From Minisyncoccota bacterium (GTDB lineage Bacteria > Patescibacteriota > Minisyncoccia > Phycocordibacterales > CAJBRS01), in contig JADGRH010000006.1 in NCBI GenBank assembly GCA_017881075.1, forward strand, positions 117,666 to 181,665: a stretch of DNA of 64,000 nucleotides, written 5' to 3'. Both the position numbers and the translations under genes were made by a program. The number at the start of each line of letters is the position of its first letter. The first letter of the stretch is position 1. Positions 1,496-60,201 of the stretch are shown here, piece by piece. Below the pieces are notes generated by a model, which saw only the letters and a program-made list of their open reading frames with translations, made no database searches and had not been told where the DNA came from.

Positions 1496-1520
1496 ATTTT
1501 TCTGATATAATTAAAATATT

Positions 1521-2849: not shown

Positions 2850-2965
2850 GAAAAGGGAGAAAATAGCAACGGCGATGCCCCCTTGCCACATCACCCACGT
2901 GCATTTCGGCATTAACTAAGCTATAATTTAAGCCGAGGGAAACACTTTCGTTTTTATAATAAACC

Positions 2966-4315
2966 ATGCAAAATAAACACTCTTTGGCCCGATATTTCTC
3001 TCTTCTTTTGATTATTGGTATTTTTTTCTCTCCAATCCCTGTTCTTTATGCACAAAATTCCCCAAATTACGACTATTCTCTGGTTCCAAACACCTACTCT
3101 TTTAATAGAGACTTTGGTAATCCTACCCAAGATCCGGCAGGCCAAAATGACGTTTCCTATTTACAATGTATTCTTGGCATGAGTCCAACCGGCTATTTCG
3201 GCTCGATCACCCAAGCCACCCTAAAAACATTTCAAGAGAATCACGCTGAAGCAGTTCTTACTCCGGTAGGTTTAACCACCGGTACTGGATATTTAGGTAG
3301 CAGTACCAGAGCTTACATCAATGCTCAACTAGTGACCGATGGTTCCACCACGGGTCCTCATTGCAGTGCTCCTACAAACACCACTGATCAATATGGTAAT
3401 CCAATCGGTACTCAATATCCTAACAATACCAACCCGTATCAAACGAATCCAAACAACAATAATCAACCCGCTAACAGTCAAAACTCGCTTCTCCCTCTCC
3501 TTCCCTACTTTATGATGATGTCACAAGGAGGAGGAGCACCACATTTGGTAAATCCAAATCAGCAGAATTCAACAAATAATCAAACTCCGTATTATCCACC
3601 AACAACTACTACCACTACAAATCCTCCAGCCGGTCCAGCTAATCCAGCTAATCCAGTTAATCCAGCTAATCCTCAACAAAATCCTCTAGCAAATAATTAC
3701 GGGAACCCACTATCATGTCAGTCGCCTAATACTTTTAATTACGCAACCGGAAAATGTGTAACTCCAGATGGTTGTAATTTGCCGCAAGTCTTTAATTTCC
3801 CAATGGGAAAGTGTGTAGATCCAAGTGGAACATCTCAGACTCCTCCGACCTCTAGCCAATCTAATCCGGACCACATCTTTGCTGGTCCAGTTGTTTATGA
3901 TTCTATGGATGCTGTTAACCGAGGTAATGAAATTTATTTGGGCAATGATGACAGACCATGTAGGCGCAGTGAGCCACACATGTTTTTAATTATCGTGAAT
4001 AATAGATATATATCTTCCGGTGATGGATCTCTTTACTTATTATTTGATGAAAATCAGACCAAGCTTGGAGGCCAACTAGTTGCTAGTCAAAATAATCTGG
4101 CTCCTGCGGCTGAACTTCTTAAAACAGGCCAGTGTATAACAGGTGACTTTATCCCCAACTCTACTCGTCTCAATGGATACCAAAGTAATTTTTGTCAGGA
4201 TTATACTCGATATGGCCAGCCACGCGTAGGTAGTACCGCTTGGCCGGTGGATGGGATTTTGAATAATATTGAAGTAAGTGCCAACGGAGCATGCTCTACA
4301 AATGTTCCACACTAA
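2966..4315 (+). CDS. secreted protein: PG-binding module + N/Q/P-rich linker with (PAN)n repeats + Cys-containing C-terminal domain of unknown function
   Basis: Third paralog. Motif VSYLQCILGMSPTGYFGSITQATLKTFQENH. TATAAT lies 5 nt before the ATG. Confidence 0.65.
   Translation: MQNKHSLARYFSLLLIIGIFFSPIPVLYAQNSPNYDYSLVPNTYSFNRDFGNPTQDPAGQNDVSYLQCILGMSPTGYFGSITQATLKTFQENHAEAVLTPVGLTTGTGYLGSSTRAYINAQLVTDGSTTGPHCSAPTNTTDQYGNPIGTQYPNNTNPYQTNPNNNNQPANSQNSLLPLLPYFMMMSQGGGAPHLVNPNQQNSTNNQTPYYPPTTTTTTNPPAGPANPANPVNPANPQQNPLANNYGNPLSCQSPNTFNYATGKCVTPDGCNLPQVFNFPMGKCVDPSGTSQTPPTSSQSNPDHIFAGPVVYDSMDAVNRGNEIYLGNDDRPCRRSEPHMFLIIVNNRYISSGDGSLYLLFDENQTKLGGQLVASQNNLAPAAELLKTGQCITGDFIPNSTRLNGYQSNFCQDYTRYGQPRVGSTAWPVDGILNNIEVSANGACSTNVPH
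3635..3670 (+). repeat. 9-nt tandem repeat CCAGCTAAT x4 (encodes PANPANPVNPANP)
   Basis: Read directly from the sequence. It is in-frame. Confidence 0.85.
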
Positions 4316-6199: not shown

Positions 6200-6988
6200 T
6201 TAAAGGGTTAAGTTTCTCCAATCTTCCAAACTCAAATCTTCCGCTCTGGCTTTTTCGGAGATTTGAGACCGCCGGAATTTCTCTTCCCAGGGAATTTCGG
6301 CGGTTTCTTTTAATTGGCGCAAATTACTGATCAAAAATTTGCGCTTGTGAGCAAAGCCAGCTTTTATGAGCTCAAAAAATTTTTCCTCTTCAATTTTGCT
6401 GTCGTGGAAAAATTTTTTGGAAATGTTCTCGATTAATAAAATAGCAGAATCTACTTTAGGTGCCGGCGCAAAATAGCGCGCCGACACCGTTTTGATGTAT
6501 TTCGGCTTGCCGTAAGCCTTAACACTAAGTGAGAGCAAGCTTTCTTTGCCGTCATTTGCCACAATTCTTTTAGCCACTTCTTTTTGAAGCATTAATACCA
6601 TTCGTTTTGGCTGGATGTCTCCAGAGAGAAACTTGCGTAAAAATATTCCGGTGATGTAATAGGGAATGTTGGCAACAATAGAATAGGTGTTAGGTTTTAG
6701 GTTATAGGTTTTAGGATTGAAGTTGAGGATATCGTCGTGCACCAATTCCAACTTTCTCGTCAATATCTCTTCCTTAAATTTTTCTTCCAGTAGAGGAACT
6801 AGCCGGTCATCCTTCTCTACCACCACCAACCGGGGCGCTGACGCCAATAATTCTTGCGTCAGCGCCCCTTTCCCCGGACCAACTTCCAGCACATTATCGC
6901 CACTTTTAATATCCGCTATCCGAACAATATCGGAAAGAATTTTTTTCGAATGTAGAAAATTTTGCCCCAATGATTTTTTTGCTCTCAT
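6200..6988 (-). CDS. rsmA: 16S rRNA (adenine1518/1519-N6)-dimethyltransferase
   Basis: Motifs LGQNFL, VLEVGPGKGALT and NIPY. Confidence 0.9.
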   Translation of the reverse strand: MRAKKSLGQNFLHSKKILSDIVRIADIKSGDNVLEVGPGKGALTQELLASAPRLVVVEKDDRLVPLLEEKFKEEILTRKLELVHDDILNFNPKTYNLKPNTYSIVANIPYYITGIFLRKFLSGDIQPKRMVLMLQKEVAKRIVANDGKESLLSLSVKAYGKPKYIKTVSARYFAPAPKVDSAILLIENISKKFFHDSKIEEEKFFELIKAGFAHKRKFLISNLRQLKETAEIPWEEKFRRSQISEKARAEDLSLEDWRNLTL

Positions 6989-9045: not shown

Positions 9046-10227
9046 TTGTGGAAATGGCAGAATGAGGGATTTATCATTAATCTTAGGCTTATTTTACCAT
9101 ACAGTAGGATTCCAAGCCGGTTTTCGGCCTCTCTAAAGCCCAAAAGTCTTATCACAAGCCTCTTCTATGGAAGGCTCATATTATCATTAGTATTACTAAG
9201 CTTGCCAGGCAATACCCAGGCAAGTGTTTTTTCATTTGTTGGCCATCTATTTGCTGGCACCAACGCCAACGCTAGCGCCTCGGATATAGTCCAAGAATCC
9301 TCCAATTCCCAGAAAATGCCTCTTCTCCAGCTGGCTCTAAACACTAATCCTACCCCATACAATAAAGAACCCGACTTAAATGTGGTGGGAGAGGCACTTC
9401 TCGCTGTAAGCGGTCCTGAAGGGGCGGCTTCCGAATCTTCCTCAGTCGTTCGTCCTTCTAATGATCAGATCAGCCTTTATACTGTCCGAGAGGGCGATAC
9501 TCTTTCAAGTATTGCCAACCTTTTTAATGTTACGGTTAATACCATTCGGTGGGCCAACGATCTGAATTCTGGCTCTACTATCAAAAAAGGACAAGTTTTA
9601 ATTATCTTACCGATCTCTGGAGTTAAATATACGGTTAAGAAGGGGGATACAGTTCAGAGTATAGCTAAGTCATACGGTGGTGATGTTGGTGAAATTAATA
9701 GTTTCAACAATCTCGAGGTAGGCCAAAAACTGTCAGTTGGAGATGAGGTTGTTATTCCCGACGGAGAACTTAGCAGTGGCGTCCAAACTTCTTCCGAAAA
9801 TTCATCAAATGGATCTAAAACTACGGTCACCAAGAGTGGTAAAACTACTGCCGGCCCAACTAGTGGCACCTATATTGATTCAAGCGGCTATTTCCGCCGA
9901 CCACTTGACGGAGGCGTTCGCACTCAAGGTATACATGGACACAATGGTGTTGACTGGGGATCTCCGGTAGGCACCCCGATCCACGCCGCCGCTTCTGGCC
10001 AAGTGATTATCAGTAAAAATAGCGGTTGGAATGGTGGCTATGGCGACTATGTGGTAATCAGCCACCCTAATGGTACGCAGACTCTTTATGCTCACATGAG
10101 CAAGACGGCAGTTTCTGGTGGAGCGAACGTGGAGAAAGGAGAAGTTATCGGCTACATTGGCCTGACCGGCGAAACCACCGGCCCCCATGTCCACTTTGAA
10201 GTTCGAGGAGCCAAAAATCCGTTCTAA
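9046..10227 (+). CDS. secreted LysM (x2) + M23 family peptidase (TTG start, uncertain)
   Basis: Two LysM motifs (YTVREGDTLSSIA, YTVKKGDTVQSIA). M23 motifs HNGVDWG...GYGDYVVISH...GPHVHFEV. A signal-like hydrophobic stretch lies ~40 aa in. Confidence 0.8.
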   Translation: MWKWQNEGFIINLRLILPYSRIPSRFSASLKPKSLITSLFYGRLILSLVLLSLPGNTQASVFSFVGHLFAGTNANASASDIVQESSNSQKMPLLQLALNTNPTPYNKEPDLNVVGEALLAVSGPEGAASESSSVVRPSNDQISLYTVREGDTLSSIANLFNVTVNTIRWANDLNSGSTIKKGQVLIILPISGVKYTVKKGDTVQSIAKSYGGDVGEINSFNNLEVGQKLSVGDEVVIPDGELSSGVQTSSENSSNGSKTTVTKSGKTTAGPTSGTYIDSSGYFRRPLDGGVRTQGIHGHNGVDWGSPVGTPIHAAASGQVIISKNSGWNGGYGDYVVISHPNGTQTLYAHMSKTAVSGGANVEKGEVIGYIGLTGETTGPHVHFEVRGAKNPF

Positions 10228-24134: not shown

Positions 24135-24158
24135 CTTTTTCCTTGAATATGGTATACT
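24131..24158 (+). promoter_or_regulatory. near-consensus sigma70-type promoter TTGACT-N16-TGgTATACT (extended -10) overlapping the truD stop
   Basis: Read from the sequence. It drives the GC-rich gene downstream. Confidence 0.55.
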
Positions 24159-24370
24159 AGCGGGCAGAACTCCTAATAGGTTTGTTGAAGAAATTTCTCT
24201 GTATCTTGGCCACTAGCGGCTGAGAGCAGGGGTTCCGGACGGCGCTTCTGTGCCGTCAAATTGCTCCCCGCACTGTGTGCGGTACGACAATGGATATAAC
24301 GAGGGCGGAATAATTCCGTACAACAAAAATTCCTCTAAAATTTCAGAGAATTGATTTAGGACTGAACAAG

Positions 24371-25387
24371 ATGGTAAAACCAAATAGAAATCACAGGCAA
24401 GGCGGTGTTTTCGGAATGCTGATGGCGCGAGTCATCATCACCACCGACCGTATCGCGGGTAACAACTACACCGCGATCGGCGTCGTTCCAACGGAAATCG
24501 TGGACGGCGACACTCATCTCGGCGAACATCGTGACGAGATTATCGGTCAGGACCTTCAGCCCCACCACAGACTGCGTAATGCCGTCGTCGTGGTCGAGCC
24601 AAAAGGCAATCGGTTCGTTCCTCTACTTTCAAAGGATCTGACCGGTAACGACCCTCTCCCCGGAGTCGGGGAAGAGATCATGATGTTGTTCCGGGTCAAT
24701 AGTCCCGAAGGCGATAACCGCAGCATCGTTGAGCGGGCATTTGCCCTGTCGTGGTCGACGGTCGAGGCTTACAGTCGAGGCGGCGAAGAAGCGGCGAAGA
24801 AAAACGAGGACCTGCCCGAGCTCAAGAACGAGATCGATGTCGAATACCGCAGTCTCTGGCGGATGACGTCGGAGTCGGCGCGGATCACCATCGGATGGAT
24901 GACCCCGCAGAAGCTTGCGGACAAGCTGCACTTCCTCAATCGCGGCCTGGTGCCAGCGGACGCCAAGTGGTTCCGTCGGGACCCCGAGATCGGCAAGCAG
25001 CTGGTCGAAGCCGATGAGGACACCCGGAAGGCGATCATCCAACAGATGCAGACCGGCGTGGAATCGAGCGCGCGGCCGAAGGCGCTGACCATGATGCGGA
25101 CGGGCGTCGTCCAAAAGCAGGAACGCCGTTCTCAGCCGAAGCAGCGCACCGAGCGCCTCGGCCCAGTCGAGAAGGAGATCCTGGCAGAGCATCGGAGTGA
25201 TGGGCAACCTCACTCGAGCCTCATCCAGTTCCCTGCGACTGCAGAGCCGAGCGCAACGGCCAAGCGCCCCGCGCCAAAGGCCAAAGCCCCGCGCAAAGGC
25301 GACGGCAAGAAAAGCAAGAAGCGCGACCCTCGGCGCCGTTCGGATCAACGGATCGACGGTGACGAAGATGCGGCGATGATCGCCTAA
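24371..25387 (+). CDS. hypothetical protein encoded in a ~60% GC island, with a basic AKP-rich C-terminal tail
   Basis: AGGA RBS 8 nt upstream. GC3-rich codon usage unlike its neighbours. C-terminus KRPAPKAKAPRKGDGKKSKKRD. Confidence 0.5.
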   Translation: MVKPNRNHRQGGVFGMLMARVIITTDRIAGNNYTAIGVVPTEIVDGDTHLGEHRDEIIGQDLQPHHRLRNAVVVVEPKGNRFVPLLSKDLTGNDPLPGVGEEIMMLFRVNSPEGDNRSIVERAFALSWSTVEAYSRGGEEAAKKNEDLPELKNEIDVEYRSLWRMTSESARITIGWMTPQKLADKLHFLNRGLVPADAKWFRRDPEIGKQLVEADEDTRKAIIQQMQTGVESSARPKALTMMRTGVVQKQERRSQPKQRTERLGPVEKEILAEHRSDGQPHSSLIQFPATAEPSATAKRPAPKAKAPRKGDGKKSKKRDPRRRSDQRIDGDEDAAMIA

Positions 25388-25426
25388 ATAAGAAAAGTCC
25401 ACAGAGGTTCGAATCCAATGTGGCGA

Positions 25427-25460
25427 GCGGTTGAGTTTACGAACTCAGCCGCTTTTTTTT
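25427..25460 (+). terminator. rho-independent terminator GCGGTTGAGTT-tacg-AACTCAGCCGC-T8
   Basis: 11-bp stem with one G-U pair, followed by a T8 tract. Confidence 0.85.
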
Positions 25461-25477
25461 GTTATAATTTTAGGGCA

Positions 25478-25774
25478 ATGTCAAAGAAATTCATAAAAAA
25501 TGTAGAAGATTTTTTCTGCGATCACTGCGGAGAAGTTGTGAAAGGTAATGGTTATACCAATCATTGCCCGAAGTGTCTTTGGAGTAAGCATGTGGATGTG
25601 GATCCGGGGGATAGGGCTAGCGAATGTGGGGGAATGATGGAGCCGATTAGGATTGAAGAGAAGGGCGGGGAGCACTCTATTGTTCATAAGTGTATTAAAT
25701 GTGGTGCGGAGAAGAAGAATAAGATGGCGGTGGGGGATGATTTTGAGAAAGTTATCGATATAACAGGAAATTAA
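25478..25774 (+). CDS. RNHCP-domain zinc-ribbon protein
   Basis: CDHCGE...TNHCPKCLWSKHVD...CGGM...CIKCG. TATAAT lies 9 nt upstream of the ATG, so the mRNA is leaderless. Confidence 0.6.
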   Translation: MSKKFIKNVEDFFCDHCGEVVKGNGYTNHCPKCLWSKHVDVDPGDRASECGGMMEPIRIEEKGGEHSIVHKCIKCGAEKKNKMAVGDDFEKVIDITGN

Positions 25775-25784
25775 TCTCAATTGT

Positions 25785-25885
25785 CTGGTGTGGCCCGCAT
25801 CCTTTCCGTTCGTTTTTCTCCGCAGACTCCGAAGAAACGACCGTAAACTCTGCGGGAACAGCCTGGACCATTGGGTATTGCACAG
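25785..25885 (+). repeat. copy A of a ~105-nt GC-rich intergenic repeat family (shared termini CCTGGTCCCCCGCATCC ... CGGGAACAGCCTGGAC-TTGG-ATTGCA)
   Basis: Aligned by eye with copies at 32845-32947 and 34270-34378. Confidence 0.75.
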
Positions 25886-26085
25886 TTCTCATGTAGTGGT
25901 GCGGCTACTCTAGGTTCTAATTGATAAGCGAAAACCACCAGCATTTTCTTTAATGAGGAAACTGTTTGACGAGTTTACGAATTGCCTGCCGAAGGAGACA
26001 ACGGCTTCGACTCGACTGGAGGCGGTGCAATCGTTAACGAGGAGTTTTCCGAGTTAAAGAAAATGCTGGGGGTTGGAGCGAGAAG

Positions 26086-27339
26086 TTAATGAGGTAGATA
26101 CGAAACCAATTCCTGCTCGTCGTGTGCTTTGAAATTGGCGGCGACGGTGGAGAGGTTGCGATTTAAGAACGCAGAAAGAGAAAGTCCGGCGCTTCGTTGT
26201 AGGTCTCTATTTATATAGGAAAGAGTGAGGGCCTGGAGATCTTTCAGATTGGAATGAAGGTCGGGAATGGTAGTGGCAATAAGACCGATCAATTTCCCGT
26301 CGGTATTGACGATACCACCGCCGGAGGCGCCTCGCTCGGCGATAGGGGTACCAGTGGTGCGAATGAGATCGGCGCCTCCTCCGGAAGCAAAAGTGTAATT
26401 TGTGACGATGGAAAGATTATCAGTTTCAATTCTCAAATTTCTAATTACCTCATTGGAGCTTAGGGCCCCGGCCGGATAACCAACAGCCAAAATTGGAGTG
26501 TTATCGCCGAGCGAAGTATCAGTGGTATCGACTGGTATGGAAGAGAAATTTCGCGGTAGGGTATCACCATTGACTGCTCCGTTAACAAGAAGCAAGGCAT
26601 AGTCTCCCTCACCCGTCTCTTCCGATTGATTGCTTTGATTTACCTCACTGCCGTGCGCCCGAAGCCATGCAGGTGAGATATAGAGTACGGTCGCTTTGTA
26701 GAAAGAAACGGCCGGCGAGCCTTTGCGAATGAAGCAATTTTTATTTGGGTTATCTAAATAATCTGCTAGAAGGATTTGATCTGCCACGTGAGCGTTAGTG
26801 AGAATTACTCCACGATTGTCTATAACCACACCACTGCCGGTGACGATAGTAATATTGTTTCCTACTTGGGTAGTGCAATAAATATTGACGACGGATGCGA
26901 TGGGATTTGATGTAGTGGGCGGGTTAGGATTAGTAGAAGTGGAGGTTGAGGTTGGAGTTGCTGTTGGAAGTGTAGGAATAGCTGGTGCTTGAGGAGCAGT
27001 GGAAGAGGACGGCCCATTGCTGGAAAGAGGAATTGGAGTGAAGGTAGGCACTTGAATGGCTAATGTCGGAAGTTTTTGTTTTTTAGTAGGAGTAGGTTTT
27101 TTTAGAATATTTTCTGGTGAGCTAGTGCTGTATGCGGTAGGGAGAAGTGGGGCGTAAGTCTGGAACGTGGTACTAGCGGGCCCGCCTAGACTCGAAAAAA
27201 TGCTAGTCGAGGCTGGTCGCTCCAAACCGGGGAGAGTTATGGCTGGAGAGGGAAGATGAGTAGACAGAGGAATGTATGGTAACCCTAAGAACGAGCCGAT
27301 GCTGAGAAGAATGGAAATAAAATGAGATGCGGCATTCAT
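26086..27339 (-). CDS. secreted trypsin-like (S1C/HtrA-like) serine protease with P/T-rich linker
   Basis: TNAHVADQ (His), GDYALLLV (Asp) and GASGGG (Ser). Confidence 0.7.
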   Translation of the reverse strand: MNAASHFISILLSIGSFLGLPYIPLSTHLPSPAITLPGLERPASTSIFSSLGGPASTTFQTYAPLLPTAYSTSSPENILKKPTPTKKQKLPTLAIQVPTFTPIPLSSNGPSSSTAPQAPAIPTLPTATPTSTSTSTNPNPPTTSNPIASVVNIYCTTQVGNNITIVTGSGVVIDNRGVILTNAHVADQILLADYLDNPNKNCFIRKGSPAVSFYKATVLYISPAWLRAHGSEVNQSNQSEETGEGDYALLLVNGAVNGDTLPRNFSSIPVDTTDTSLGDNTPILAVGYPAGALSSNEVIRNLRIETDNLSIVTNYTFASGGGADLIRTTGTPIAERGASGGGIVNTDGKLIGLIATTIPDLHSNLKDLQALTLSYINRDLQRSAGLSLSAFLNRNLSTVAANFKAHDEQELVSYLPH

Positions 27340-27346
27340 ATGTATT

Positions 27347-27420
27347 TGGTGCGGGATGGGGGAATCGAACTCCCGACCACAGTTTGGAAAACTGTCGTTT
27401 TACCACTAAACTAATCCCGC
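27347..27420 (-). tRNA. tRNA-Gly (anticodon TCC), CCA encoded
   Basis: Acceptor GCGGGAT/ATCCCGC. Anticodon stem ACAGT/ACTGT with loop TTTCCAA. T-loop TTCGATT. 3' end ACCA. Confidence 0.8.
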
Positions 27421-27467
27421 TCTTCTTCGCCACAAATATAACAGATAAGGCCTTTTTTGCAAAAAAA

Positions 27468-27496
27468 GAGTCGCGCCGGAGGCGCGACTCTTTTTT
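27468..27496. terminator. bidirectional terminator GAGTCGCGCC-gga-GGCGCGACTC flanked by A7 and T6
   Basis: 10-bp perfect stem. Confidence 0.8.
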
Positions 27497-27520
27497 AAGT
27501 GGGCGAAGTTAAGATATTAA

Positions 27521-27793
27521 TTACTTAACAGCGTCTTTCAAAGCTTTAGCGGCTCTGAATTTTGGAACTCTCATGGCTTTGACCTGGATTGATTCGCCGG
27601 TTCGAGGATTTCGAGCGGTTCGAGCGGCTCGCTGTTTGGCGACGAAAATGCCGAGGCCGGAGATTGAAACTTCCTCACCTTTTTTCAGAGTATTAACGAT
27701 CGAGTCGATAACGGTGTCCATTACCTGTTCTGCCTGAACCCGAGTTCCCCCGAGGACCTGCTGAATGGCTTCTACAATTCCTGCTTTATTCAT
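27521..27793 (-). CDS. hup: HU family DNA-binding protein
   Basis: 90 aa. GLGIFVAKQRAARTARNPRTGE. Confidence 0.95.
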   Translation of the reverse strand: MNKAGIVEAIQQVLGGTRVQAEQVMDTVIDSIVNTLKKGEEVSISGLGIFVAKQRAARTARNPRTGESIQVKAMRVPKFRAAKALKDAVK

Positions 27794-27917
27794 CTTGCTT
27801 ATATTTATAGCTTATAAATACCTCGACCTCTTTAATGTTGATATAAATGATTATATATTAGGCCCTTTTTAGTGCAATAGGGTGATTTTCCACATACCAA
27901 TGGGCACCATTGGTATT

Positions 27918-29450
27918 CTATCTAGCAAATTCAATAGCTCGGTTTTCGCGAATAACTGTAACCTTTATTTCTCCAGGATATTTCAATTCCTGTTCAATCT
28001 TTTCCGCTATATCCTGAGCCATTTTTTTGGCGTCGAGATCAGAGACTTCACTTGGAGTAACAAAGATGCGGATCTCACGGCCGGCCTGAAGGGCGTATGA
28101 TTTCTCCACTCCTTTGAAACCCTTGGCAATAGCCTCAAGATCACCAAGTCGCTTCAGATAGTTCTCCATGCTGTCGCGGCGGGCGCCAGGGCGCCCGCCG
28201 GAAATAGAGTCGGCGGTTTGAACAATAATAGACTCAACGGTTTCGTAAGGATATTCTTCATGATGTGCCTGCATGGCCTTGACGATATCCTCATGCGCTC
28301 CGAATTTTTGCAGAATTCGGCGACCGATCTCCACGTGTGTCCCGGCTACTTCATGATCTACCGCCTTACCGATGTCGTGAAGAAGAGCGCCGGCTTTGGC
28401 TATTTGCACATTTGCTCCGAGCTCTTCGGCGAGCATACCGGCAATGTGAGCCATCTCAATTGAGTGTTGCAAAACATTTTGACCATAGCTGGTTCGAAAA
28501 TAGAGTCGGCCGAGAATGGAAATAATTCGTGGATCAAGATTAATGACGCCGGTTTCGTATACGGCCTGCTCACCTTTTTCTTTAATAATATTATTGATCT
28601 CCAGTTTGGCCTTTTCTACTTCCTTCTCGATCTTGGCTGGCTGAATACGGCCATCCAAAATGAGATTCTCCAAAGCCAGCCGTGCCACTTGTCTGCGGAC
28701 CGGATCAAAGGAAGAAATGGTAATGGAGCCAGGTGTATCGTCCACAATGATTTCCACACCCGTTTCGCGCTCAAAAGCCTTAATATTTCGGCCTTCCTTG
28801 CCGATAATTTTGCCTTTAATCTCATCCGATGGAATAGCAACGTGGGTGGTGAAGAGATCGGCGGATACGGACGTAGCCAGTCTTTGAATGGTAGTGGAAA
28901 GTATGTCTTTAGCTTTCTGTTCCAATTTATCTTGACCAAATATTTCCATTTTCTTCATTCTGGCCAGAATATCTTCCTCGTATTTTTTCTCCACACTCCC
29001 GAGGAGTTCATTTTTAGCTTCTTCCTGACTAAGGCCAGAGATTTTTTCAAGCTCTGCTCGCTTCTGGGCCTCCAGATTATCGACTTTTTCTTTGATATCC
29101 TTTATCTCAATGACTTTCACCTTGAGAGTTTCAACTTCTTTATCAATATCTCCTTGACGAGTATCCAGGAGTTCTTCTTTCTTGATCAGACGATCTTCAG
29201 TTTTCTTCGACTTCTCCTCCTTTTCCTTAATATCTTCGCGGATCTCTCTAAGGGTTTCAGTGGCCTCCTTTTCCGCGGCCAGGGTTATTTTCTTGGCCTC
29301 TTCTTTAGCATCAAGCATCATCTGCTTGATCTCGATCTCCATTGAACCTTTTTTACCAAGAGCAATAATCAGTCGGAGAAAATATCCGAGAGCAATGCCA
29401 ACTAAGCCGGTCGATGCCAGCATCAGAACTACTATTTTTAATGAAATCAT
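27918..29450 (-). CDS. rny: ribonuclease Y
   Basis: N-terminal TM helix, coiled coil, KH domain and HD domain (LLHDIGKAVDHE). Confidence 0.9.
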   Translation of the reverse strand: MISLKIVVLMLASTGLVGIALGYFLRLIIALGKKGSMEIEIKQMMLDAKEEAKKITLAAEKEATETLREIREDIKEKEEKSKKTEDRLIKKEELLDTRQGDIDKEVETLKVKVIEIKDIKEKVDNLEAQKRAELEKISGLSQEEAKNELLGSVEKKYEEDILARMKKMEIFGQDKLEQKAKDILSTTIQRLATSVSADLFTTHVAIPSDEIKGKIIGKEGRNIKAFERETGVEIIVDDTPGSITISSFDPVRRQVARLALENLILDGRIQPAKIEKEVEKAKLEINNIIKEKGEQAVYETGVINLDPRIISILGRLYFRTSYGQNVLQHSIEMAHIAGMLAEELGANVQIAKAGALLHDIGKAVDHEVAGTHVEIGRRILQKFGAHEDIVKAMQAHHEEYPYETVESIIVQTADSISGGRPGARRDSMENYLKRLGDLEAIAKGFKGVEKSYALQAGREIRIFVTPSEVSDLDAKKMAQDIAEKIEQELKYPGEIKVTVIRENRAIEFAR

Positions 29451-29591
29451 AGGCGAATGGATCTCGCTTTAGACTTTATGAAGATGATCTATGAAGTTTT
29501 TAGAATTAGTTTCATTGAAAAAAATGACATCTCTTTAGTGGTCAAAAGCTAAAATCAAAATTATATGTTTAATGTCTTTAGGATACAGCAT

Positions 29592-30197
29592 CTAAAGAAT
29601 CTTGTCTATAAGGCCGTATTTTTTGGCCTCTTCGGCATTCATGAAATAGTCGCGATCAACATCCTTGGCCACCTGGTCCAGGGACTTGCCGGTGTTTTTG
29701 GCTAGGATTTTATTGAGGTTTTCTCTGATGCGGACGATTTGTTTGGCGGTGATCTCAATGTCGGTGGCTCGGCCTTCGGCTCCGCCGGAAGGCTGATGGA
29801 TCATTATTTCGGCATTAGGCAGAGCAAAACGTTTTCCTTTCTTTCCGGCGGAAAGAATGATGGCGCCGCCGGAGGCGGCGAGGCCGACACAGATAGTGGC
29901 GACATCATTTTTGATGTAATTCATGGTGTCTAACATGGCGAGGGTGGCAGTGACTGATCCCCCGGGAGAATTTATATAGAGGTTAATATCTTTTTTGGGA
30001 TCCTCAAATTGGAGGAAAAGAAGTTGGGCGATAACGATATTGGCCATCTGATCATCAATGGCGCCGCCGAGGAAGATGACGTTCTCGCGAAGAAGGCGGG
30101 AGTAAATATCATAGGCGCGCTCGCCGAATTGGGATTTTTCGATAACTGTGGGGATTAACATATGGGGAAAGTATATTAAATCGGTTTTAAAATGCAA
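29592..30197 (-). CDS. clpP: ATP-dependent Clp protease proteolytic subunit
   Basis: [10 protein letters not shown]...MIHQPSGG. Confidence 0.95.
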
Positions 30198-30233
30198 ATG
30201 GCGCTCTGGCTGGACTTATGAAACAATTAAGGA

Positions 30234-30962
30234 ATGAGGCTACACCGGTTTTTAATTGAAGAGGTTATAGGGGGAGCGGAGGAGATCATGATTACCGACT
30301 CCGAGCTTATTCACCAGTGGAAGAACGTTTTTCGGTTTACGACCGGGACACGGCTAATCCTTTTTGATGGTTCCGGTTTTGAATATCTGGGTTTGATTGA
30401 TCGACTCTCTAATCTTGGAGCCAAGGTCAGAATCTTAAGCAAGGAAGACAAAAATAACGTTCCATATCCAGAAATTTGTCTTTTTGCCGCTCTGATTAAG
30501 AAAGATAATTTTGAGTGGATTATTGAAAAGGCGACTGAACTTGGGGTTTCACAAATTGTGCCGGTTCTCTGTGACCGAAGTGAGAAGAAGGGACTGAACA
30601 TGGTCCGAGCAAAGAAGATCATGAAAGAGGCGAGCGAGCAGTCGGGAAGGGTAAAGTTGCCCAGGTTGAATGAGCCTCAAGCGCTTGAGGATTTACTGAA
30701 AAGTATAAAGATTGGAGATGAAGAAAACTTAAAAATTTTCTCAATAGATCCGAAAGGAAAGATAAAATTTGGAAACTTAGCTTCCAAATGGAAAGAGGTT
30801 AAAGAAATTGGGGTTTTGGTGGGGCCGGAAGGGGGGTGGAGTGAAAGGGAATTGGAGCTTTTCCGTCTGAAAAAGATCCCAATCTATAGTCTCGGCCCTC
30901 AAATCCTCCGGGCCGAGACGGCAGCTATCGCAGTTGCATCTCTACTTATTTTAGGAGAATGA
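30234..30962 (+). CDS. rsmE: 16S rRNA (uracil1498-N3)-methyltransferase RsmE family
   Basis: MRLHRF... VLVGPEGGWSEREL. Confidence 0.65.
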   Translation: MRLHRFLIEEVIGGAEEIMITDSELIHQWKNVFRFTTGTRLILFDGSGFEYLGLIDRLSNLGAKVRILSKEDKNNVPYPEICLFAALIKKDNFEWIIEKATELGVSQIVPVLCDRSEKKGLNMVRAKKIMKEASEQSGRVKLPRLNEPQALEDLLKSIKIGDEENLKIFSIDPKGKIKFGNLASKWKEVKEIGVLVGPEGGWSERELELFRLKKIPIYSLGPQILRAETAAIAVASLLILGE

Positions 30963-30990
30963 ATTATCGAAGTCTGACTTCAATAATTCA
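30960..30990. repeat. palindrome family member: TGAATTATCGAAGTC-T-GACTTCAATAATTCA
   Basis: 31-nt near-perfect palindrome between the convergent rsmE and tig genes. Confidence 0.8.
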
Positions 30991-32025
30991 TTATTTCTTC
31001 TCCTCTAAAAATCGCCACACTAATTCATTAGTGAGTAACTGTTCGATGTAGATGCGGACACGAGACGGGTCGGCGTCTTTGTGGTGGGAGAGGAGATGCT
31101 TGGTTTCTTTTTCAACATCCTCTTTTGCCGGCTCAATCTTTTCGAGAAGGGCAATTTTCTGTAAGATTAATTCCATCTTGGCACGTTTTTCAGCTTCATT
31201 TTTCCATTCACCTTTTATTTCCTCTTCAGTCTTTCCGATCTGTTTAAAATAATCTTCAATTTTTATTCCCATACCACTAACATTGCTTTTGAATTGAGTG
31301 AGCATTTTTTCCTGTTCACTTTCCACCAGGATTTTCGGGACCACCACACTCGTGGCGGCAATAATTTTCTCAATAGTTTCTAAACGACGTTTTTCCCGCA
31401 GACGCAATTCTTTCTCGTTTCGTAAATTTTCTCGTAGTTGATTTTTAAAATCTTCCACGTCTTTGAATTCACCGAATTGTTTTACTAATTCATTGGTCAG
31501 CGGGGTGAGAGGCGGCGGCACGGCATTTTCCGCCGCCGCCTTTTCGGGCGATAGGTTCTTTTGAAAACGCAAAAGAGCCTCTTCAAATTCTTGATCGGTA
31601 ACTTCGGCTTTTTCATCTTTCCCCATGATTGCCTTAGCCAATTTTTTATAATCTGGCAACTTAACCTCTGGCACCATAGCCACTTTTATTTTAAAACCCA
31701 GAGGATTGCCGGCCGCAAGTTTAGTGATGGAAACTTGCGGCCGACCGACAGGGTTGATCTTTACTTCAATCAGTATCTTTAAATAAAAATTTTCTAGGGC
31801 GAGCGAGGCGGCTTCTTCAAGAATGCCGAGATCACCGACCTTCTCAATCAGCACCTTCTCCGGAATATGACCTTTGCGAAAGCCATCAATTGTTAGTCGC
31901 TCGTTCAATCTTTTAATGGCCTCAACGCGATGTCTAGCCACGGCTTCAACCGATATTTCTCCTTCAATTTCAATTTCCGAATCAGGCAACTGATTCGTCT
32001 TTAAGATTTTGAATTCCTCCTTCAT
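30991..32025 (-). CDS. tig: trigger factor (short form)
   Basis: IDGFRKGHIPEKV matches trigger factor IDGFRKGKVP. Adjacent to clpP. Confidence 0.75.
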   Translation of the reverse strand: MKEEFKILKTNQLPDSEIEIEGEISVEAVARHRVEAIKRLNERLTIDGFRKGHIPEKVLIEKVGDLGILEEAASLALENFYLKILIEVKINPVGRPQVSITKLAAGNPLGFKIKVAMVPEVKLPDYKKLAKAIMGKDEKAEVTDQEFEEALLRFQKNLSPEKAAAENAVPPPLTPLTNELVKQFGEFKDVEDFKNQLRENLRNEKELRLREKRRLETIEKIIAATSVVVPKILVESEQEKMLTQFKSNVSGMGIKIEDYFKQIGKTEEEIKGEWKNEAEKRAKMELILQKIALLEKIEPAKEDVEKETKHLLSHHKDADPSRVRIYIEQLLTNELVWRFLEEKK

Positions 32026-32219
32026 TAGGTAGTGGTAGCGCTTAGGCCAATGACAACGCCACTTGTGCTAGTCGAGGTAGGAAATGAGGAATGATTAATC
32101 CTTGGCCCAATTTTAAATCTCCAAAAATAATATGCGCCGAGAAGTAGCACTAAGACGACAATGATAATGCCAATTACTCCTCCGACAGATGAAGCTCCAA
32201 GTTTTAAATTTCTTTTCAT
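32025..32219 (-). CDS. small membrane protein (64 aa)
   Basis: One TM helix VIGIIIVVLVLLLGAYYFW. Start overlaps the tig stop. Confidence 0.4.
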   Translation of the reverse strand: MKRNLKLGASSVGGVIGIIIVVLVLLLGAYYFWRFKIGPRINHSSFPTSTSTSGVVIGLSATTT

Positions 32220-32222
32220 GAA

Positions 32223-32771
32223 TTACTTTGGAAATTTTTCTTGATAGATTTTTATGGATTTATTTACTGCTTCCATTGCCTCTGCTTTTCCTTTTATTTC
32301 ACCAATAGTAACAACATTACTCTCACCTTTTAAAGTTTTATATGTTTCAAAAAAGTGCTGAATTTCGCGAATAGTGTGTTTATTAACATCCTTCAGATCT
32401 TTAATCTCTTCCCAGCGTCTGTCTTTCACCGGCACGGCAATAACTTTACAATCCGATTCGCCGTCATCAATCATTTCCATCATTGCTACCGGTCTGACTT
32501 CCACTAACACTCCTACTTGAATAGGAAAAGTGGAGAGAACAATAATATCGAGAGCATCCCCATCTTCCCACAGTGTTTGCGGAGCAAATCCATAATCAAC
32601 TGGGTACGCAGCGGAGGAATAATTGGCACGATCAAGAGCGATAAGACCGGTCTTCTTGTCTATTTCATATTTATTATTTGAGCCTTTTGGAATTTCAATA
32701 ATGGTATTGAATTCTTCGGGGGCTTTGTCTCCTAGGGGCACATCGTGCCAGAGGTTCATTCCGTGTGTCAT
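32223..32771 (-). CDS. ppa: inorganic pyrophosphatase
   Basis: EIPKGSNNKYEIDK...DGDALDIIVL. Confidence 0.9.
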   Translation of the reverse strand: MTHGMNLWHDVPLGDKAPEEFNTIIEIPKGSNNKYEIDKKTGLIALDRANYSSAAYPVDYGFAPQTLWEDGDALDIIVLSTFPIQVGVLVEVRPVAMMEMIDDGESDCKVIAVPVKDRRWEEIKDLKDVNKHTIREIQHFFETYKTLKGESNVVTIGEIKGKAEAMEAVNKSIKIYQEKFPK

Positions 32772-32844
32772 GGTTTTATTATATCAAATATTAATTGACT
32801 CGCGCCACGAACGTACAATTTCAAGCGATATTAATAGGAATATC

Positions 32845-32947
32845 ACCCTGGTCCCCCGCATCCTTTCCGTTCGACTTTTCCTCCCAGAACCTCGGAAAAG
32901 CGACCGTAAACTCTGCGGGAACAGCCTGGACGTTTGGGCATTGCAAA
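32845..32947 (+). repeat. copy B of ~105-nt GC-rich repeat family (same orientation as copy A)
   Basis: Terminal 19 nt and 31 nt are identical to copy A. Confidence 0.75.
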
Positions 32948-32976
32948 ATGTTTATTTGGTGGCGGCGATAAACTTT

Positions 32977-34152
32977 TTACTTGGTTTCAGTATCACTTTT
33001 TTCAACTTCCCCTTCCGCAATCGTCTCACCCTTAGCTGATCGAATATCAATTCTCCACCCAGTGAGCTTAGCGGCCAATCTTACGTTTTGCCCACCTTTG
33101 CCGATAGCGAGTGACTGCTGATCTTCTGTCACTTCTACTACGGCGGTGTTCTCTTCCTGATTAATAGCGACATTCAGAACCTTGGCGGGGGAGAGAGCGT
33201 CCTCAATGAACTGCTCTGCTCCTGGTGACCATTCAATAATATCAATTTTTTCGCCGCCAAGCTCGCTCATAACGGTGGAAACTCGAACGCCACGTTGTCC
33301 TACCATTGAGCCTACCGGATCAATATGTGGATCATTGGAAGCAACGGCAATTTTAGAGCGGGAGCCAGCCTCGCGAGCAATAGCCTTTACTTCAACGCTA
33401 CCGCTCGGGATTTCCGGCACCTCGGATTCAAAAAGCTTAGCCAAGAATTTTGGATGAGCCCGGGAAAGCCGCAGAAAAATTCCGCGAGGGGTTTCCTCCA
33501 CTCTTGAAAGATACATTCTTACTCGCTCTCCTTGTCGGTAGTGCTCTCCGGGTATTTGCTCTTCGTAGGGAAGGATTCCGCTGGCTCGCCCCATATCCAT
33601 GAAGATGTTTCCGCGTTCTACTCTTTGGACGGTGCCACTAACTATCTCTCCCTCGCGTTTGCCGTATTCAGAAAGGACGGAAGTCTTTTCAGCTTCACGA
33701 ATTTTCTGAATGATCACTTGCTTGGCTGTCTGAGCGGCGATTCGGCCGTAATCACTCTTGGCCTCGAGTGGAAAAATTAATTCCTCACCGACTTCAACAC
33801 CCTTTTTAATTTTACGAGCATCGTCGATCAAAATGTGATGTTCCGGATTGAATCGCACCTTCAATTCGCCCTCGAGGCTCTCGGGGTGATCACTCCATTT
33901 CTCCGGTGTCTCTTCCCCTTCTTCTTCAAAAACTACTTTGGATTCGTCCACGACGATCTTTACCTGAAAGAAGTCGGCTTTACCGCTTGAGAGATCGAAT
34001 TTGGCCCGGATATATTGACCGCGTTTGCCATACTCTTTTTTATAAGCAGTAGCCAGGGCCATCTCAATAGCTTCAAGGATTTTCTCACGAGGAATACCTC
34101 GCTCTTCTTCAAGCTGATCTAAAACTGAATGAATAACTTTTAAGTCGAACAT
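32977..34152 (-). CDS. nusA: transcription termination/antitermination factor NusA
   Basis: NusA N-terminal, S1 and two KH domains. GGKGGQNVRLAAKLTGW. Confidence 0.95.
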   Translation of the reverse strand: MFDLKVIHSVLDQLEEERGIPREKILEAIEMALATAYKKEYGKRGQYIRAKFDLSSGKADFFQVKIVVDESKVVFEEEGEETPEKWSDHPESLEGELKVRFNPEHHILIDDARKIKKGVEVGEELIFPLEAKSDYGRIAAQTAKQVIIQKIREAEKTSVLSEYGKREGEIVSGTVQRVERGNIFMDMGRASGILPYEEQIPGEHYRQGERVRMYLSRVEETPRGIFLRLSRAHPKFLAKLFESEVPEIPSGSVEVKAIAREAGSRSKIAVASNDPHIDPVGSMVGQRGVRVSTVMSELGGEKIDIIEWSPGAEQFIEDALSPAKVLNVAINQEENTAVVEVTEDQQSLAIGKGGQNVRLAAKLTGWRIDIRSAKGETIAEGEVEKSDTETK

Positions 34153-34269
34153 GTTATAGCTGTTAGGAATTAGTAATAATTTTTTAAAAAAGAAGTTCGC
34201 CGGAAGGCGAACTAATAATTAAACTTTATTCTTTTTAAATCATTTGTCAATCCCCGCCACTAAAAGGTC

Positions 34270-34378
34270 TGCTGTGCAATATCCAAACGTCCAGGCTGTT
34301 CCCGGAGAGCTCGTGAACGACACTTCTGGAGTCTTCGGAAGAATGTCGGGCAGGAGCGATACGGGGGACCAGGGTTGT
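34270..34378 (-). repeat. copy C of ~105-nt GC-rich repeat family (inverted relative to A and B)
   Basis: The reverse complement ends ...GGGAACAGCCTGGACGTTTGGATATTGCACAG and starts CAACCCTGGTCCCCCG. Confidence 0.75.
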
Positions 34379-34393
34379 CCACATTCTTTAGAT

Positions 34394-45493: not shown

Positions 45494-45599
45494 CGTGATT
45501 CTTCCTTTCGGTTTGGCTCACTATGGCCGTTTTGGGGACAGCATGACGCTGTCTTGTCTAAATTCAAATTATAATAAAAATTAGGTTTTGTCTAGACTA

Positions 45600-45725
45600 A
45601 AATCCGACACCCAGGTTCCAACATCGTACCTGCCCGCACTTGCGGTAGCTAGGCAGGCGGGCCAGCCCCCCAGAGTAAAACCCGATATCCGATGTCGGAC
45701 ATCTTGTGAGGGAACAGGGTTATAT
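45600..45725. ncRNA. candidate structured GC-rich RNA element (nested stems TCCGACA/TGTCGGA, CCTGCC/GGCAGG, CCGC-ACTT-GCGG)
   Basis: Hand-folded. Strand and function unknown. Confidence 0.25.
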
Positions 45726-48098: not shown

Positions 48099-48121
48099 TG
48101 ACCGAAGTCTGACTTCGGTCA
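48099..48121. repeat. palindrome family member: TGACCGAAGTC-T-GACTTCGGTCA (23-nt perfect)
   Basis: Lies between convergent genes and abuts the trmB-like stop codon. Confidence 0.85.
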
Positions 48122-50081: not shown

Positions 50082-50110
50082 AAAATAACGAAGTCAGACT
50101 TCGTTATTTT
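50082..50110. repeat. palindrome family member: AAAATAACGAAGTC-A-GACTTCGTTATTTT (29-nt perfect)
   Basis: Lies between the divergent HIT and recJ genes. Confidence 0.85.
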
Positions 50111-54140: not shown

Positions 54141-54881
54141 ATGAATAAGATTGTCATTTTTACCGACGGCGCTTCGCGAGGCAATCCCGGTCCGGGTGGC
54201 TGGGGCGCTGTAATAGCTTATAGGAATCAGCTTATAGCTTATAGCAAAAAGGAAAGTGTAATTGAGTTGGGAGGAAGAGAGACTAATACAACCAACAACA
54301 GAATGGAATTAATAGCGGCAATCAAAGCTTTAGAATACATTTCCTATAAGCTAAAACCTATAAGCTATAAGCTAGATATTTACACCGACTCTTCCTATTT
54401 GATAAATGGCATCACCAAATGGGTAAGTGCCTGGCGAATGAATGATTGGCGCACAAAGGCCAAAAAAGAAGTTTTAAATCGCGAACTCTGGGAGGAGTTG
54501 GTAGAGCAGACGGAAAACAAGAATATTGAATGGAAATATTCTGGCGGTCATAGCGGCATCGCCGGTAATGAAAGGTGTGATGAGATCGCAACGGAATTTG
54601 CCGATGGTAAAGAAGTAAATTTACACAACAGCGCGCTTTCAAAATACCCGATTGATATTTTGAATTTTAATTTTAATGAGGCGAAAACTCAAAAAAAGGC
54701 GGCCCTTCGGCGGCACTCAGGGCTTGCAGCCTACTCCTACGTCAGTATGGTAGACGGTAAAATAAAAACCCACAAATCCTGGCCCGACTGCGAAAAGCGC
54801 GTCAAAGGCAAGAGTGGAGCAAGGTTTAAGAAAGCAACGAGTGCTGCTCAAGAAAAAGAAATTATTAGCGCTTGGGAATAG
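54141..54881 (+). CDS. rnhA: ribonuclease HI with C-terminal hybrid-binding (Cauli_VI-like) domain
   Basis: IFTDGASRGNPGPGGWG... C-terminus YSYVSMVDGKIKTHKSWPDCEKRVKGKSGARFKKATS matches the HBD consensus. Confidence 0.85.
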   Translation: MNKIVIFTDGASRGNPGPGGWGAVIAYRNQLIAYSKKESVIELGGRETNTTNNRMELIAAIKALEYISYKLKPISYKLDIYTDSSYLINGITKWVSAWRMNDWRTKAKKEVLNRELWEELVEQTENKNIEWKYSGGHSGIAGNERCDEIATEFADGKEVNLHNSALSKYPIDILNFNFNEAKTQKKAALRRHSGLAAYSYVSMVDGKIKTHKSWPDCEKRVKGKSGARFKKATSAAQEKEIISAWE

Positions 54882-56935: not shown

Positions 56936-57002
56936 AGTTTTTATATTAAATTAATAATAATTTCATCTCACATGTTTATAATATCAGATTCTGTCTGATC
57001 TG

Positions 57003-57091
57003 GTGCCCACTCGCATGCCTCCGTTCGACGTTCTTTCGGAAACCTCAAGAAGTCGCCCAGAGTCAAGCTCGCAACACCTCGGCCTTTAAGT
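57003..57091 (+). repeat. left copy of ~85-bp inverted repeat (~95% identical to 59064-59148 rc)
   Basis: Aligned by eye; the central ~70 nt are identical. Confidence 0.85.
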
Positions 57092-57147
57092 GATAAATTA
57101 TGTATTAATCACTTCACCAACGCACTAATATTATAGACGTTTCAAAC

Positions 57148-58908: not shown

Positions 58909-59063
58909 TCAGCCTCCAGCCGCATTAGTATTTCTTGCCTGCGGTGCGACGCTCTGGAAAAGGCAATTCTAGCAGTACTTTCGCTATCCTCGGCAGCGAA
59001 ATACTAATGCGACTTCCGGCTTCCTTTCCACATCAGTGATAGTGATAGGTAATAAAAATGTAA

Positions 59064-59148
59064 CTTAAAGGACGAGGTGTTGCGAGCTTGACTCTGGGCG
59101 ACTTCTTGAGGTTTCCGAAAGAACGTCGAACGGAGGCATGCGAGCGGA
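59064..59148 (-). repeat. right copy of ~85-bp inverted repeat
   Basis: See the left copy at 57003-57091. Confidence 0.85.
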
Positions 59149-59232
59149 CACGATCTGTATTTACAAGGTTGCATTTTCTGCTTCTCTGTATTACATTATT
59201 ACCTACGCCACGAGGCGCATTTTCATTAAGAA

Positions 59233-60182: not shown

Positions 60183-60201
60183 ATCGAAGTCAGACTTCGT
60201 T
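60183..60201. repeat. palindrome family member: ATCGAAGTC-A-GACTTCGTT
   Basis: Lies between rpsG and the inserted gene. Confidence 0.8.

Follow-up and report, generated by a model that had tools for sequence, protein, structure and literature searches.

Small non-coding repeats of several kinds have been described in bacterial genomes. The ERIC/IRU, BOX, RUP and Correia/NEMIS units are about 100-150 nt long and strictly intergenic, with many copies right after a stop codon or in a promoter region; they are present in some genomes and absent from relatives, form a long imperfect hairpin, encode no enzyme and are probably co-transcribed, and BOX is modular in its make-up. Miniature inverted-repeat transposable elements (MITEs) are also small, non-coding and multi-copy, with filled and empty sites, and are bounded by terminal inverted repeats, whereas the REP/REPIN (RAYT) and PATE (IS200/IS605) sequences are intergenic, strand-asymmetric imperfect palindromes kept by compensatory change. 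REP/BIME hairpins protect upstream mRNA, and RNase III cuts Correia elements. The genomes of the candidate phyla radiation (CPR)/Patescibacteria are tiny and compact and, to our knowledge, are generally considered poor in repeats and mobile DNA. Here we describe a family of intergenic repeats in a 64,000-nt stretch of DNA (the window) from a Minisyncoccota bacterium (GCA_017881075.1, contig JADGRH010000006.1, positions 117,666 to 181,665). The family has five copies in the window, in two subfamilies (A, B and C; D and E). The repeat is a genuine feature with a new sequence, and by category it is a known one, an intergenic structured repeat.

Results

A family of five repeats

The original prediction, made from the sequence alone, had described three copies of a GC-rich repeat of about 105 nt, and sequence and alignment bear out A, B and C where it had placed them. 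Copies D and E had been missed; they were discovered in a repeat scan of the whole window as a 111-nt inverted pair (57003-57113 and 59041-59151). Each of the five copies is matched by a five-copy profile at E values of 1e-29 to 1e-33, with no other match in the window. With a hidden Markov model (HMM) built from A-C only, copies E and D are the next best matches, in the same orientation and model region (Table 1), and the background begins at E = 2.4, so that the link between the subfamilies is independent of model training. A covariance model (R1), run with filters off, gave 120-130 bits for all five copies and found no sixth in the 64 kb.

The alignment of A-C, of about 165 columns, has a mean column identity of 78% and contains the 16-mer CGGGAACAGCCTGGAC, which is invariant in subfamily 1 and occurs exactly three times in the window; the expected number of matches is 0.34 even with up to three mismatches allowed, and not one of 100 shuffles yields as many as three. 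Copies A-C are real, far beyond chance. The two blocks of 19 nt and 31 nt said to be identical between A and B are correct, and the predicted 3' consensus holds in A, B and C, whereas the 5' motif CCTGGTCCCCCG(C/T)ATC is found in B and C but not in A, which reads CTGGTGTGGCCCGCATC. The predicted length was too short: similarity extends about 30 nt further 3', to (T/A)GTGG(C/T)G(G/C)(G/C)G, which gives a unit of about 125-135 nt in subfamily 1; across the family it is about 125-145 nt. Similarity begins and ends at the unit boundaries, while the flanks, the candidate -10 boxes and their spacing are not common to the copies. The GC enrichment was confirmed (80-nt maxima of 57-61% in the core vs about 43% for the window), and the intergenic placement is true of all copies.

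Copies D and E are about 88-92% identical and A and B about 77-84%; the two subfamilies are weakly similar to each other. Subfamily 2 does not keep the 16-mer. Common to D/E and A-C are a CTGGTG...CGCAT.C.TCCGTTCGAC stretch, a hairpin in the same place and then AACA(G/C)C. Open frames run over the copies on differing strands, and A and B are frameshifted relative to each other; a coding open reading frame (ORF) over the copies was rejected, the frames being inconsistent.

An independent Logan assembly (SRR10489828) reproduces positions 32909-34318 exactly, including parts of B and C. A second contig of this assembly starts about 118 nt upstream of rpsL, a placement inside copy E that is inferred from the position of rpsL, and its first 41 bases match the family HMM (this contig is L016 in our set). 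The Logan contigs rule out an assembly artefact. Their ends fall within copies B, C and E, and repeats disrupt de Bruijn graph assemblies of short reads in this way.

All sites are empty in related genomes

Six genomes were compared with the window: GCA_035652395 (sequences L005, L006 and L019), GCA_038215155 (L007 and L020), L012, L013, L018 and the more distant L038. Gene order in these relatives is the same as in the window and their spacers are short. Wherever a relative covers one of the five sites, that site is empty (Table 1); the element at site C is missing from L005, L007, L012, L013 and L038, and the profile and the covariance model found zero copies in about 105 kb of the relatives' DNA. 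On NusA identity, four relatives form a cluster (89-93% among themselves) and the window's lineage lies just outside it (86-90% to the four); in the outgroup L038, whose NusA is 80% identical, sites B and C are empty. The elements were therefore gained in the window's lineage and not lost elsewhere, and all five copies are such gains. B/C and D/E are inverted pairs around genes, 1.3-1.9 kb apart; the order and orientation of the genes between them are the same as in the relatives, and thus no inversion has taken place.

At site A, L005 and L007 have a single (G)ATTAATGAGG or CTAATGAGG, which holds both overlapping stop codons with nothing between them. The window reads GGAAATTAAT, 310 nt and then TTAATGAGG, with an exact duplicate of TTAAT at 25771-25775 and 26086-26090, and each of the convergent genes keeps its own stop codon inside one of the TTAAT copies. 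Site B is flanked by ATCAAA (32783-32788) and AT-AAA (32968-32972), where the empty site of L012 has TTATCAAACTTTC once, with a single ATCAAA. Copy C lies between TGGACAA (34375-34381) and TTGACAA (34244-34250), with 124 nt between them; L012 has a single TTGACAA there, the -35 box of nusA, and L013 a single TTGACA, whereas L005 and L007 carry two TTGAC(A) motifs without the element. At site D, TATAATAGCAGACGTTTT in L018 corresponds to TATAATATCAGA, about 147 nt and GACGTTTC in the window, and only AGA is repeated. The flanking repeats at A, B, C and D each occur once in at least one empty site and look suggestively like a target-site duplication.

L007 has, exactly where the flanks of copy C lie in the window, the tandem ATTTGACAA-G-ATTTGACAA (about 9895-9920, upstream of nusA), which could be the footprint of an excision or no more than a pair of -35 boxes.

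Two of the sites hold additional DNA in the form of long, near-perfect hairpins, beside A and beside E (Table 1), and both are missing in the relatives. Homology between the two was rejected, as 58911-59021 has no significant similarity to 25916-26085. They may be separate elements that share permissive sites, or variable modules of the same insertions. The roughly 54 extra nt at site B were considered as a hairpin and rejected (z about 0).

A hairpin kept by compensatory change

The helix CCGCAGA..TCTGCGG that had been proposed for the family is private to copy A. What is conserved in all five copies is a longer and imperfect hairpin of about 70 nt, which runs in subfamily 1 from CCCGCA to TGCGGG. 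Its positions pair in 83.9% of alignment cells, compared with 39-54% when the partner is slid by 1-3 columns; 10 of the 25 pairs are changed on both sides, compared with 1-4 with the partner slid, and none of 500 shuffles equals the observed hairpin score. These counts support the pairing, in five sequences that amount effectively to three lineages and in a pattern that does not distinguish DNA from RNA. A structured RNA, one of the two natures first proposed, gains from this hairpin but not from the folding energies of the whole element, which are no better than those of shuffles (z of -0.6 to +0.6).

If the element acts as RNA, the better-folding strand would be the one opposite to that used in the original prediction. 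The hairpin has an advantage of 2.5-12 kcal/mol on this opposite strand (Table 1), with z down to -4.1; the strand has 11 G-U cells vs 5 A-C cells, and its internal loops are 80% purine (GA/GA, GAG/GGA, GAGA/GAUA). The apical loop carries GGAGU or GAGGU in five of five copies, which is ACUCC or ACCUC on the other strand. Only copies B and E are informative about transcription sense, and in both the better-folding strand has the sense of the flanking co-directional genes. For the long hairpins beside A and E, the favoured strand is the other one.

Searches outside the window

No match to the copies was found in Rfam 15, at the gathering threshold or at E values up to 10, and only four tRNAs in the window pass. 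Exact GGGAACAGCCTGGACNNTTGG was scanned for in about 186,000 GTDB species-representative genomes, in JGI metagenomes and in the viral sequences of IMG/VR. There were three, four and one matches, respectively, all unrelated, mostly GC-rich and apparently coding, with no element around them. Further viral scans gave 0 matches to the core of subfamily 2 and 17 to the 5' motif, none of which fits the model. With blastn, one copy was used per collection (B against phages, D against plasmids), and neither had a match. To catch spurious ORFs called over homologous elements elsewhere, the copies were translated in six frames into a chimeric protein query, which had no match either. The only other occurrence of the family is the same strain in SRR10489828. 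Searches of the full-text literature returned no paper that describes a small interspersed repeat, a structured intergenic RNA, a MITE or a REP in CPR/Patescibacteria. The claim that such an element had not been described for this lineage therefore stands, on Rfam 15, the sequence collections scanned and the literature searches alike. As for copies beyond the first three, there are two more in the window and none outside this strain.

Genomic setting and other features of the window

All five copies are found along 34 kb that hold core housekeeping genes (nusA, ppa, sodA, rpsL), inserted in permissive intergenic DNA between convergent stops, between a stop and the next promoter, or between divergent promoters (Table 1). 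The host belongs to the Paceibacterota (CPR); the NusA protein whose gene lies between B and C shares 86-91% identity with proteins labelled Candidatus Paceibacterota or Parcubacteria. The sole recombinase in the window is XerC/D-like, of the tyrosine type; ComEC and type IV pilus genes are also present, and RNase Y and PNPase are encoded nearby. Copies A and E carry long hairpins at their sides. No terminator is predicted ahead of copies B and E, which have co-directional genes on either side. Transcription of the copies would not be uniform, copy C lying between conserved divergent promoters.

Table 1. Repeat copies, insertions and adjoining hairpins in the window. Hairpin minimum free energies (MFE, kcal/mol) are given for the strand opposite to the original prediction and then for the predicted strand; spacers are those between the neighbouring genes.
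Feature	Position	Strand	Scores or structure	Neighbours	Hairpin MFE, opposite / predicted	Spacer in window	Spacer in relatives
Copy A	25785-25915	+ (sense of the original prediction; hairpin folds better on the opposite strand)	nhmmer E = 4.5e-31; R1 119.9 bits, minus strand	Convergent stop codons of RNHCP-domain gene (25418-25774) and trypsin-like protease gene (26086-27339), by Pfam	-19.2 / -12.4	311 nt	L005, L007: the two stop codons overlap
Copy B	32843-32969	+ (sense of the original prediction)	nhmmer E = 1.1e-33; R1 130.3 bits, minus strand	nusA stop (32977-32979) and ppa; predicted sense opposite to both genes	-19.7 / -17.2	205 nt	L007, L012, L013, L038: 18-35 nt; L005: 116 nt of unrelated sequence
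Copy C	34251-34374	-	nhmmer E = 3e-31; R1 125.8 bits, + strand	Between divergent -35 boxes of the nusA promoter and the promoter of an fn3-domain gene	-30.6 / -18.7		
Copy D	56989-57135	+	nhmmer E = 4.5e-29; A-C-only HMM E = 0.0023; one arm of inverted repeat I1	Divergent sodA and MBL-fold (ComEC-C-like) genes	-27.1 / -15.6	212 nt	L018: 63 nt
Copy E	59030-59165	-	nhmmer E = 1.3e-29; A-C-only HMM E = 0.0013	M50 peptidase stop (58908) and rpsL promoter	-29.2 / -17.7	324 nt	L019, L020: 51 and 54 nt
Whole insertion, site A	25776-26085		310 nt, copy A plus long hairpin; TTAAT-bracketed				
Probable whole insertion, site B	32789-32967		About 179 nt, copy B plus about 54 nt extra; boundaries inferred by eye against L012				
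Long near-perfect hairpin beside A	25933-26074		MFE -61.5 kcal/mol (+ strand), z = -6.4, 0/200 shuffles as good; 29-nt arms 86% complementary				
Long near-perfect hairpin beside E	58911-59021		MFE -54.7 kcal/mol (minus strand), z = -5.4				

The nusA leader (34186-34250, minus strand) is conserved across the relatives (L005, at 9888-9952; L007, L012, L013 and L038). It consists of a TTGACA promoter, a hairpin (A)GTTCGC(C)-loop-GCGAAC(T) that varies slightly from relative to relative, and a U-run about 40 nt before the start codon, and looks like an attenuator or terminator in the 5' untranslated region (UTR) of a termination-factor gene.

A second set of short repeats is formed by the palindrome CGAAGTC(A/T)GACTTCG, with AT-rich flanks, at 30968-30982, 48103-48117, 50089-50103 and 60185-60199; no copy would be expected by chance. 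Each of the four copies sits in a short gap between ORFs or runs a few bases into the end of an ORF, and none occurs in 37 comparison loci, syntenic relatives included. The palindrome looks like a REP or a bidirectional terminator.

Two GC-rich segments were considered as further members of the family and rejected. The first, at 24135-24370, has no R1 match and is conserved in L007. It has a promoter, TTGACTTTTTCCT(T/C)GAATATGGTATACT, identical in L007 at all but one base, and then, ahead of an ORF of 338 aa (24371-25387) that is GC-rich and has no Pfam match, a structured leader that is also rich in GC (z = -3.6, + strand); the leader is a candidate cis-regulatory RNA without an Rfam match. 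The second, at 45595-45725, is an intergenic segment of 65% GC upstream of tpiA in which GGGAACAGGG and CCCAGGTTCC recall motifs of the element, with no match to the profile or to R1.

Three further loci stand apart from the family. The trigger factor (30991-32025, 344 aa) has the N- and C-terminal domains and no Pfam match for the central peptidyl-prolyl isomerase domain, and its relatives, of 337-357 aa, are likewise. At 266-4315 there are three tandem paralogous ORFs (409, 442 and 449 aa) with no Pfam match and with DNA blocks that are 70-77% identical; they contain proline/threonine-rich stretches and TCC/TCA repeat tracts (689-742, 1857-1901, 1943-2018). Inside an RNase H ORF, at 54213-54374, AGCTTATAG units form an inverted repeat with arms of up to 35 nt, about 90 nt apart, and TAGGTTTTAGGTTATAGG units that resemble this repeat are found at 6691-6714.

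Discussion

We lean towards the view that these repeats are a new non-autonomous, lineage-restricted interspersed family, which behaves in the manner of MITE, ERIC or BOX elements without being a classical MITE. The original prediction had left the choice between a structured non-coding RNA and a MITE- or REP-like mobile element. The mobile or insertional option is favoured by the empty sites, by the flanking repeats and by the lack of a promoter or terminator shared among the copies; its two specific forms fare less well, as the family has no terminal inverted repeats and is not a REP. The four-copy palindrome, a second lineage-specific family in the same genome, was also counted as repeat behaviour. 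In such a scheme, the element was probably inserted into an A/T-rich target by a transposition-like event that duplicated a few base pairs, and the mobilising enzyme would act in trans, from outside the window. Copies inside transcription units, namely B downstream of nusA, E downstream of the M50 gene and A downstream of the protease gene, would be carried into mRNA, where a copy is predicted to fold as a rod-like hairpin, as do ERIC, BOX and Correia, and could affect the stability or processing of the 3' end.

Several observations weigh against mobility. The case for it comes from five sites in one strain, with no copy in other genomes, and the scans of genomes and metagenomes covered the 3' motif of subfamily 1 only. 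No gene for a transposase, a reverse transcriptase or a Y1/RAYT protein was found in the window with Pfam. The flanking repeats are 3-7 bp, of unequal length, mostly imperfect and A/T-rich, and could have arisen by chance. Inspection by eye revealed no terminal inverted repeats at the ends defined by the empty sites (A, 25776/26085; C, 34374/34251; D, 56989/57135); subterminal complementarity amounts to 6-9 nt only (e.g. TCCCCG/CGGGGGA in C), differs from copy to copy and overlaps the internal hairpin. What was inserted also varies from site to site, with unrelated hairpins at A and E and about 54 nt at B, so that no single clean mobile unit emerges. Finally, the copies are fairly diverged, and the compensatory changes and the invariant 16-mer suggest purifying selection, a picture that suits a functional element no less than it does a decaying transposon.

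The main rival proposes that the copies are paralogous small RNA (sRNA) genes, trans-acting or protein-binding, which arose in this lineage and are each transcribed alone, the functional parts being the rod-like hairpin with its conserved loop and the invariant 16-mer. An element so rich in GC in an AT-rich genome would suit an sRNA, as would invariant blocks that adjoin a variable stem which keeps its pairing through compensatory changes, the asymmetry in G-U and A-C cells, the purine-rich internal loops, the better folding of one strand and the loop motif kept in every copy. Independent genes of this kind would each need signals of their own, and no promoter- or terminator-like site, an intrinsic terminator included, is common to the copies. 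The folding of the whole element is unremarkable, the family is missing from all relatives, even at syntenic sites, and has no match in Rfam, and copy C, as judged from promoter conservation, would lie between two divergent promoters and remain untranscribed by its neighbours. We regard this explanation as unlikely.

It is also possible, and in our estimation improbable, that the element is a cis-acting RNA module kept as useful in the UTRs of housekeeping genes, as a 3'-end stabiliser, a processing site or an insulator. The positions of several copies would fit, given that B starts 7 nt after the nusA stop, that A follows the protease stop and E the M50 stop, each past a long hairpin, that B and E have their better-folding strand in the sense of the genes around them, and that RNase Y and PNPase are encoded nearby. 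With two copies informative for orientation, however, the agreement would be met by chance one time in four. Copies C and probably D are outside transcription units or at their very start, the long hairpins beside A and E have the other strand as their better-folding one, and the relatives manage without the element at every site.

The two ideas of spread and function may be joined, in that a functional, lineage-specific RNA module would have spread by insertion and then been kept by selection. Judged from sequence, it would be rod-like, with G-A-rich internal loops and a Shine-Dalgarno-like GGAGU/GAGGU apical loop; such a module would bind a protein or the ribosomal anti-Shine-Dalgarno, or direct the processing by RNase of housekeeping mRNAs, those of nusA, ppa and rpsL among them. 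We hold this combination to be doubtful.

It seems very unlikely that the repeats act at the DNA level, as scattered intergenic sites recognised by a recombinase, a nucleoid protein or the DNA-uptake machinery. The 16-bp block invariant in subfamily 1, the XerC/D-like recombinase, ComEC and type IV pilus genes of the window and the inverted pairs B/C and D/E around genes would favour this reading, but the 16-mer is not kept in subfamily 2, dif sites and uptake sequences are far smaller than this unit of about 130 nt and its covarying hairpin, and no inversion has occurred between the inverted pairs relative to the relatives. Other candidates were rejected: integron attC sites, on account of the mixed orientations, the syntenic housekeeping genes and the lack of an integron integrase context; retron msr-msd, since no reverse transcriptase is in the window, a long hairpin follows two of the five copies and no a1/a2 complementarity was seen by eye around A; and the repeats of diversity-generating retroelements and self-cleaving ribozymes, for which defining partners or Rfam matches are missing.

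Whatever its nature, the family indicates that the intergenic DNA of one lineage has been recently remodelled, by five insertions, two unrelated long hairpins and a palindrome family, its relatives having remained compact. If the element is mobile, it marks a trans-acting enzyme in the group. Should selection maintain it for a role as RNA, sister genomes that hold the same operons with and without the module make a natural experiment of a rare kind, and if it is a functional mobile regulatory RNA, it would be one in an ultra-small CPR genome. A practical aspect is that such repeats break short-read assemblies of these metagenome-assembled genomes.

How, then, does the family compare with known systems? 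Among the small RNA families of Rfam 15 there are parallels to a GC-rich island in an AT-rich genome with a covarying hairpin and a conserved loop motif, but no family matches at E values up to 10, and the element has no promoter or terminator of its own and is not conserved in relatives. It does not belong to REP/REPIN or to the PATE of IS200/IS605, despite the imperfect palindrome kept by compensatory change, the intergenic placement, the strand asymmetry and some inverted pairs. The unit of about 130 nt has one hairpin of about 70 nt where REP has 20-40 nt, with no doublet and no RAYT in the window; REP and PATE make no target duplication, whereas the family's sites have flanking repeats; and no target tetranucleotide of the PATE kind is common to the copies (TTGT, ATCA(C), ACAA(C), TGAT and AGAT adjoin them), nor is there a TnpA in the window. 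With MITEs the family has in common its small size, its non-coding and multi-copy nature, its filled and empty sites and short repeats resembling target duplications at three or four of the five sites. It differs in having no known parent insertion sequence and flanking repeats of non-uniform length, and, lacking terminal inverted repeats, it fails the MITE definition. The closest likeness is to the ERIC/IRU, BOX, RUP and Correia/NEMIS units. There is no sequence similarity to them, ERIC, RUP and Correia have terminal inverted repeats that the family lacks, its hairpin is internal and about half of the unit, and it has been seen in a single strain of a CPR bacterium whose genome is very small. 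Nevertheless, size, intergenic placement after stops and in promoter regions, presence or absence between relatives, a long imperfect hairpin, the lack of an encoded enzyme, probable co-transcription and a seemingly modular and variable make-up as in BOX are all shared, and with five intergenic copies, empty sites and a covarying hairpin the family has the properties of an intergenic unit of the ERIC/BOX/Correia type.

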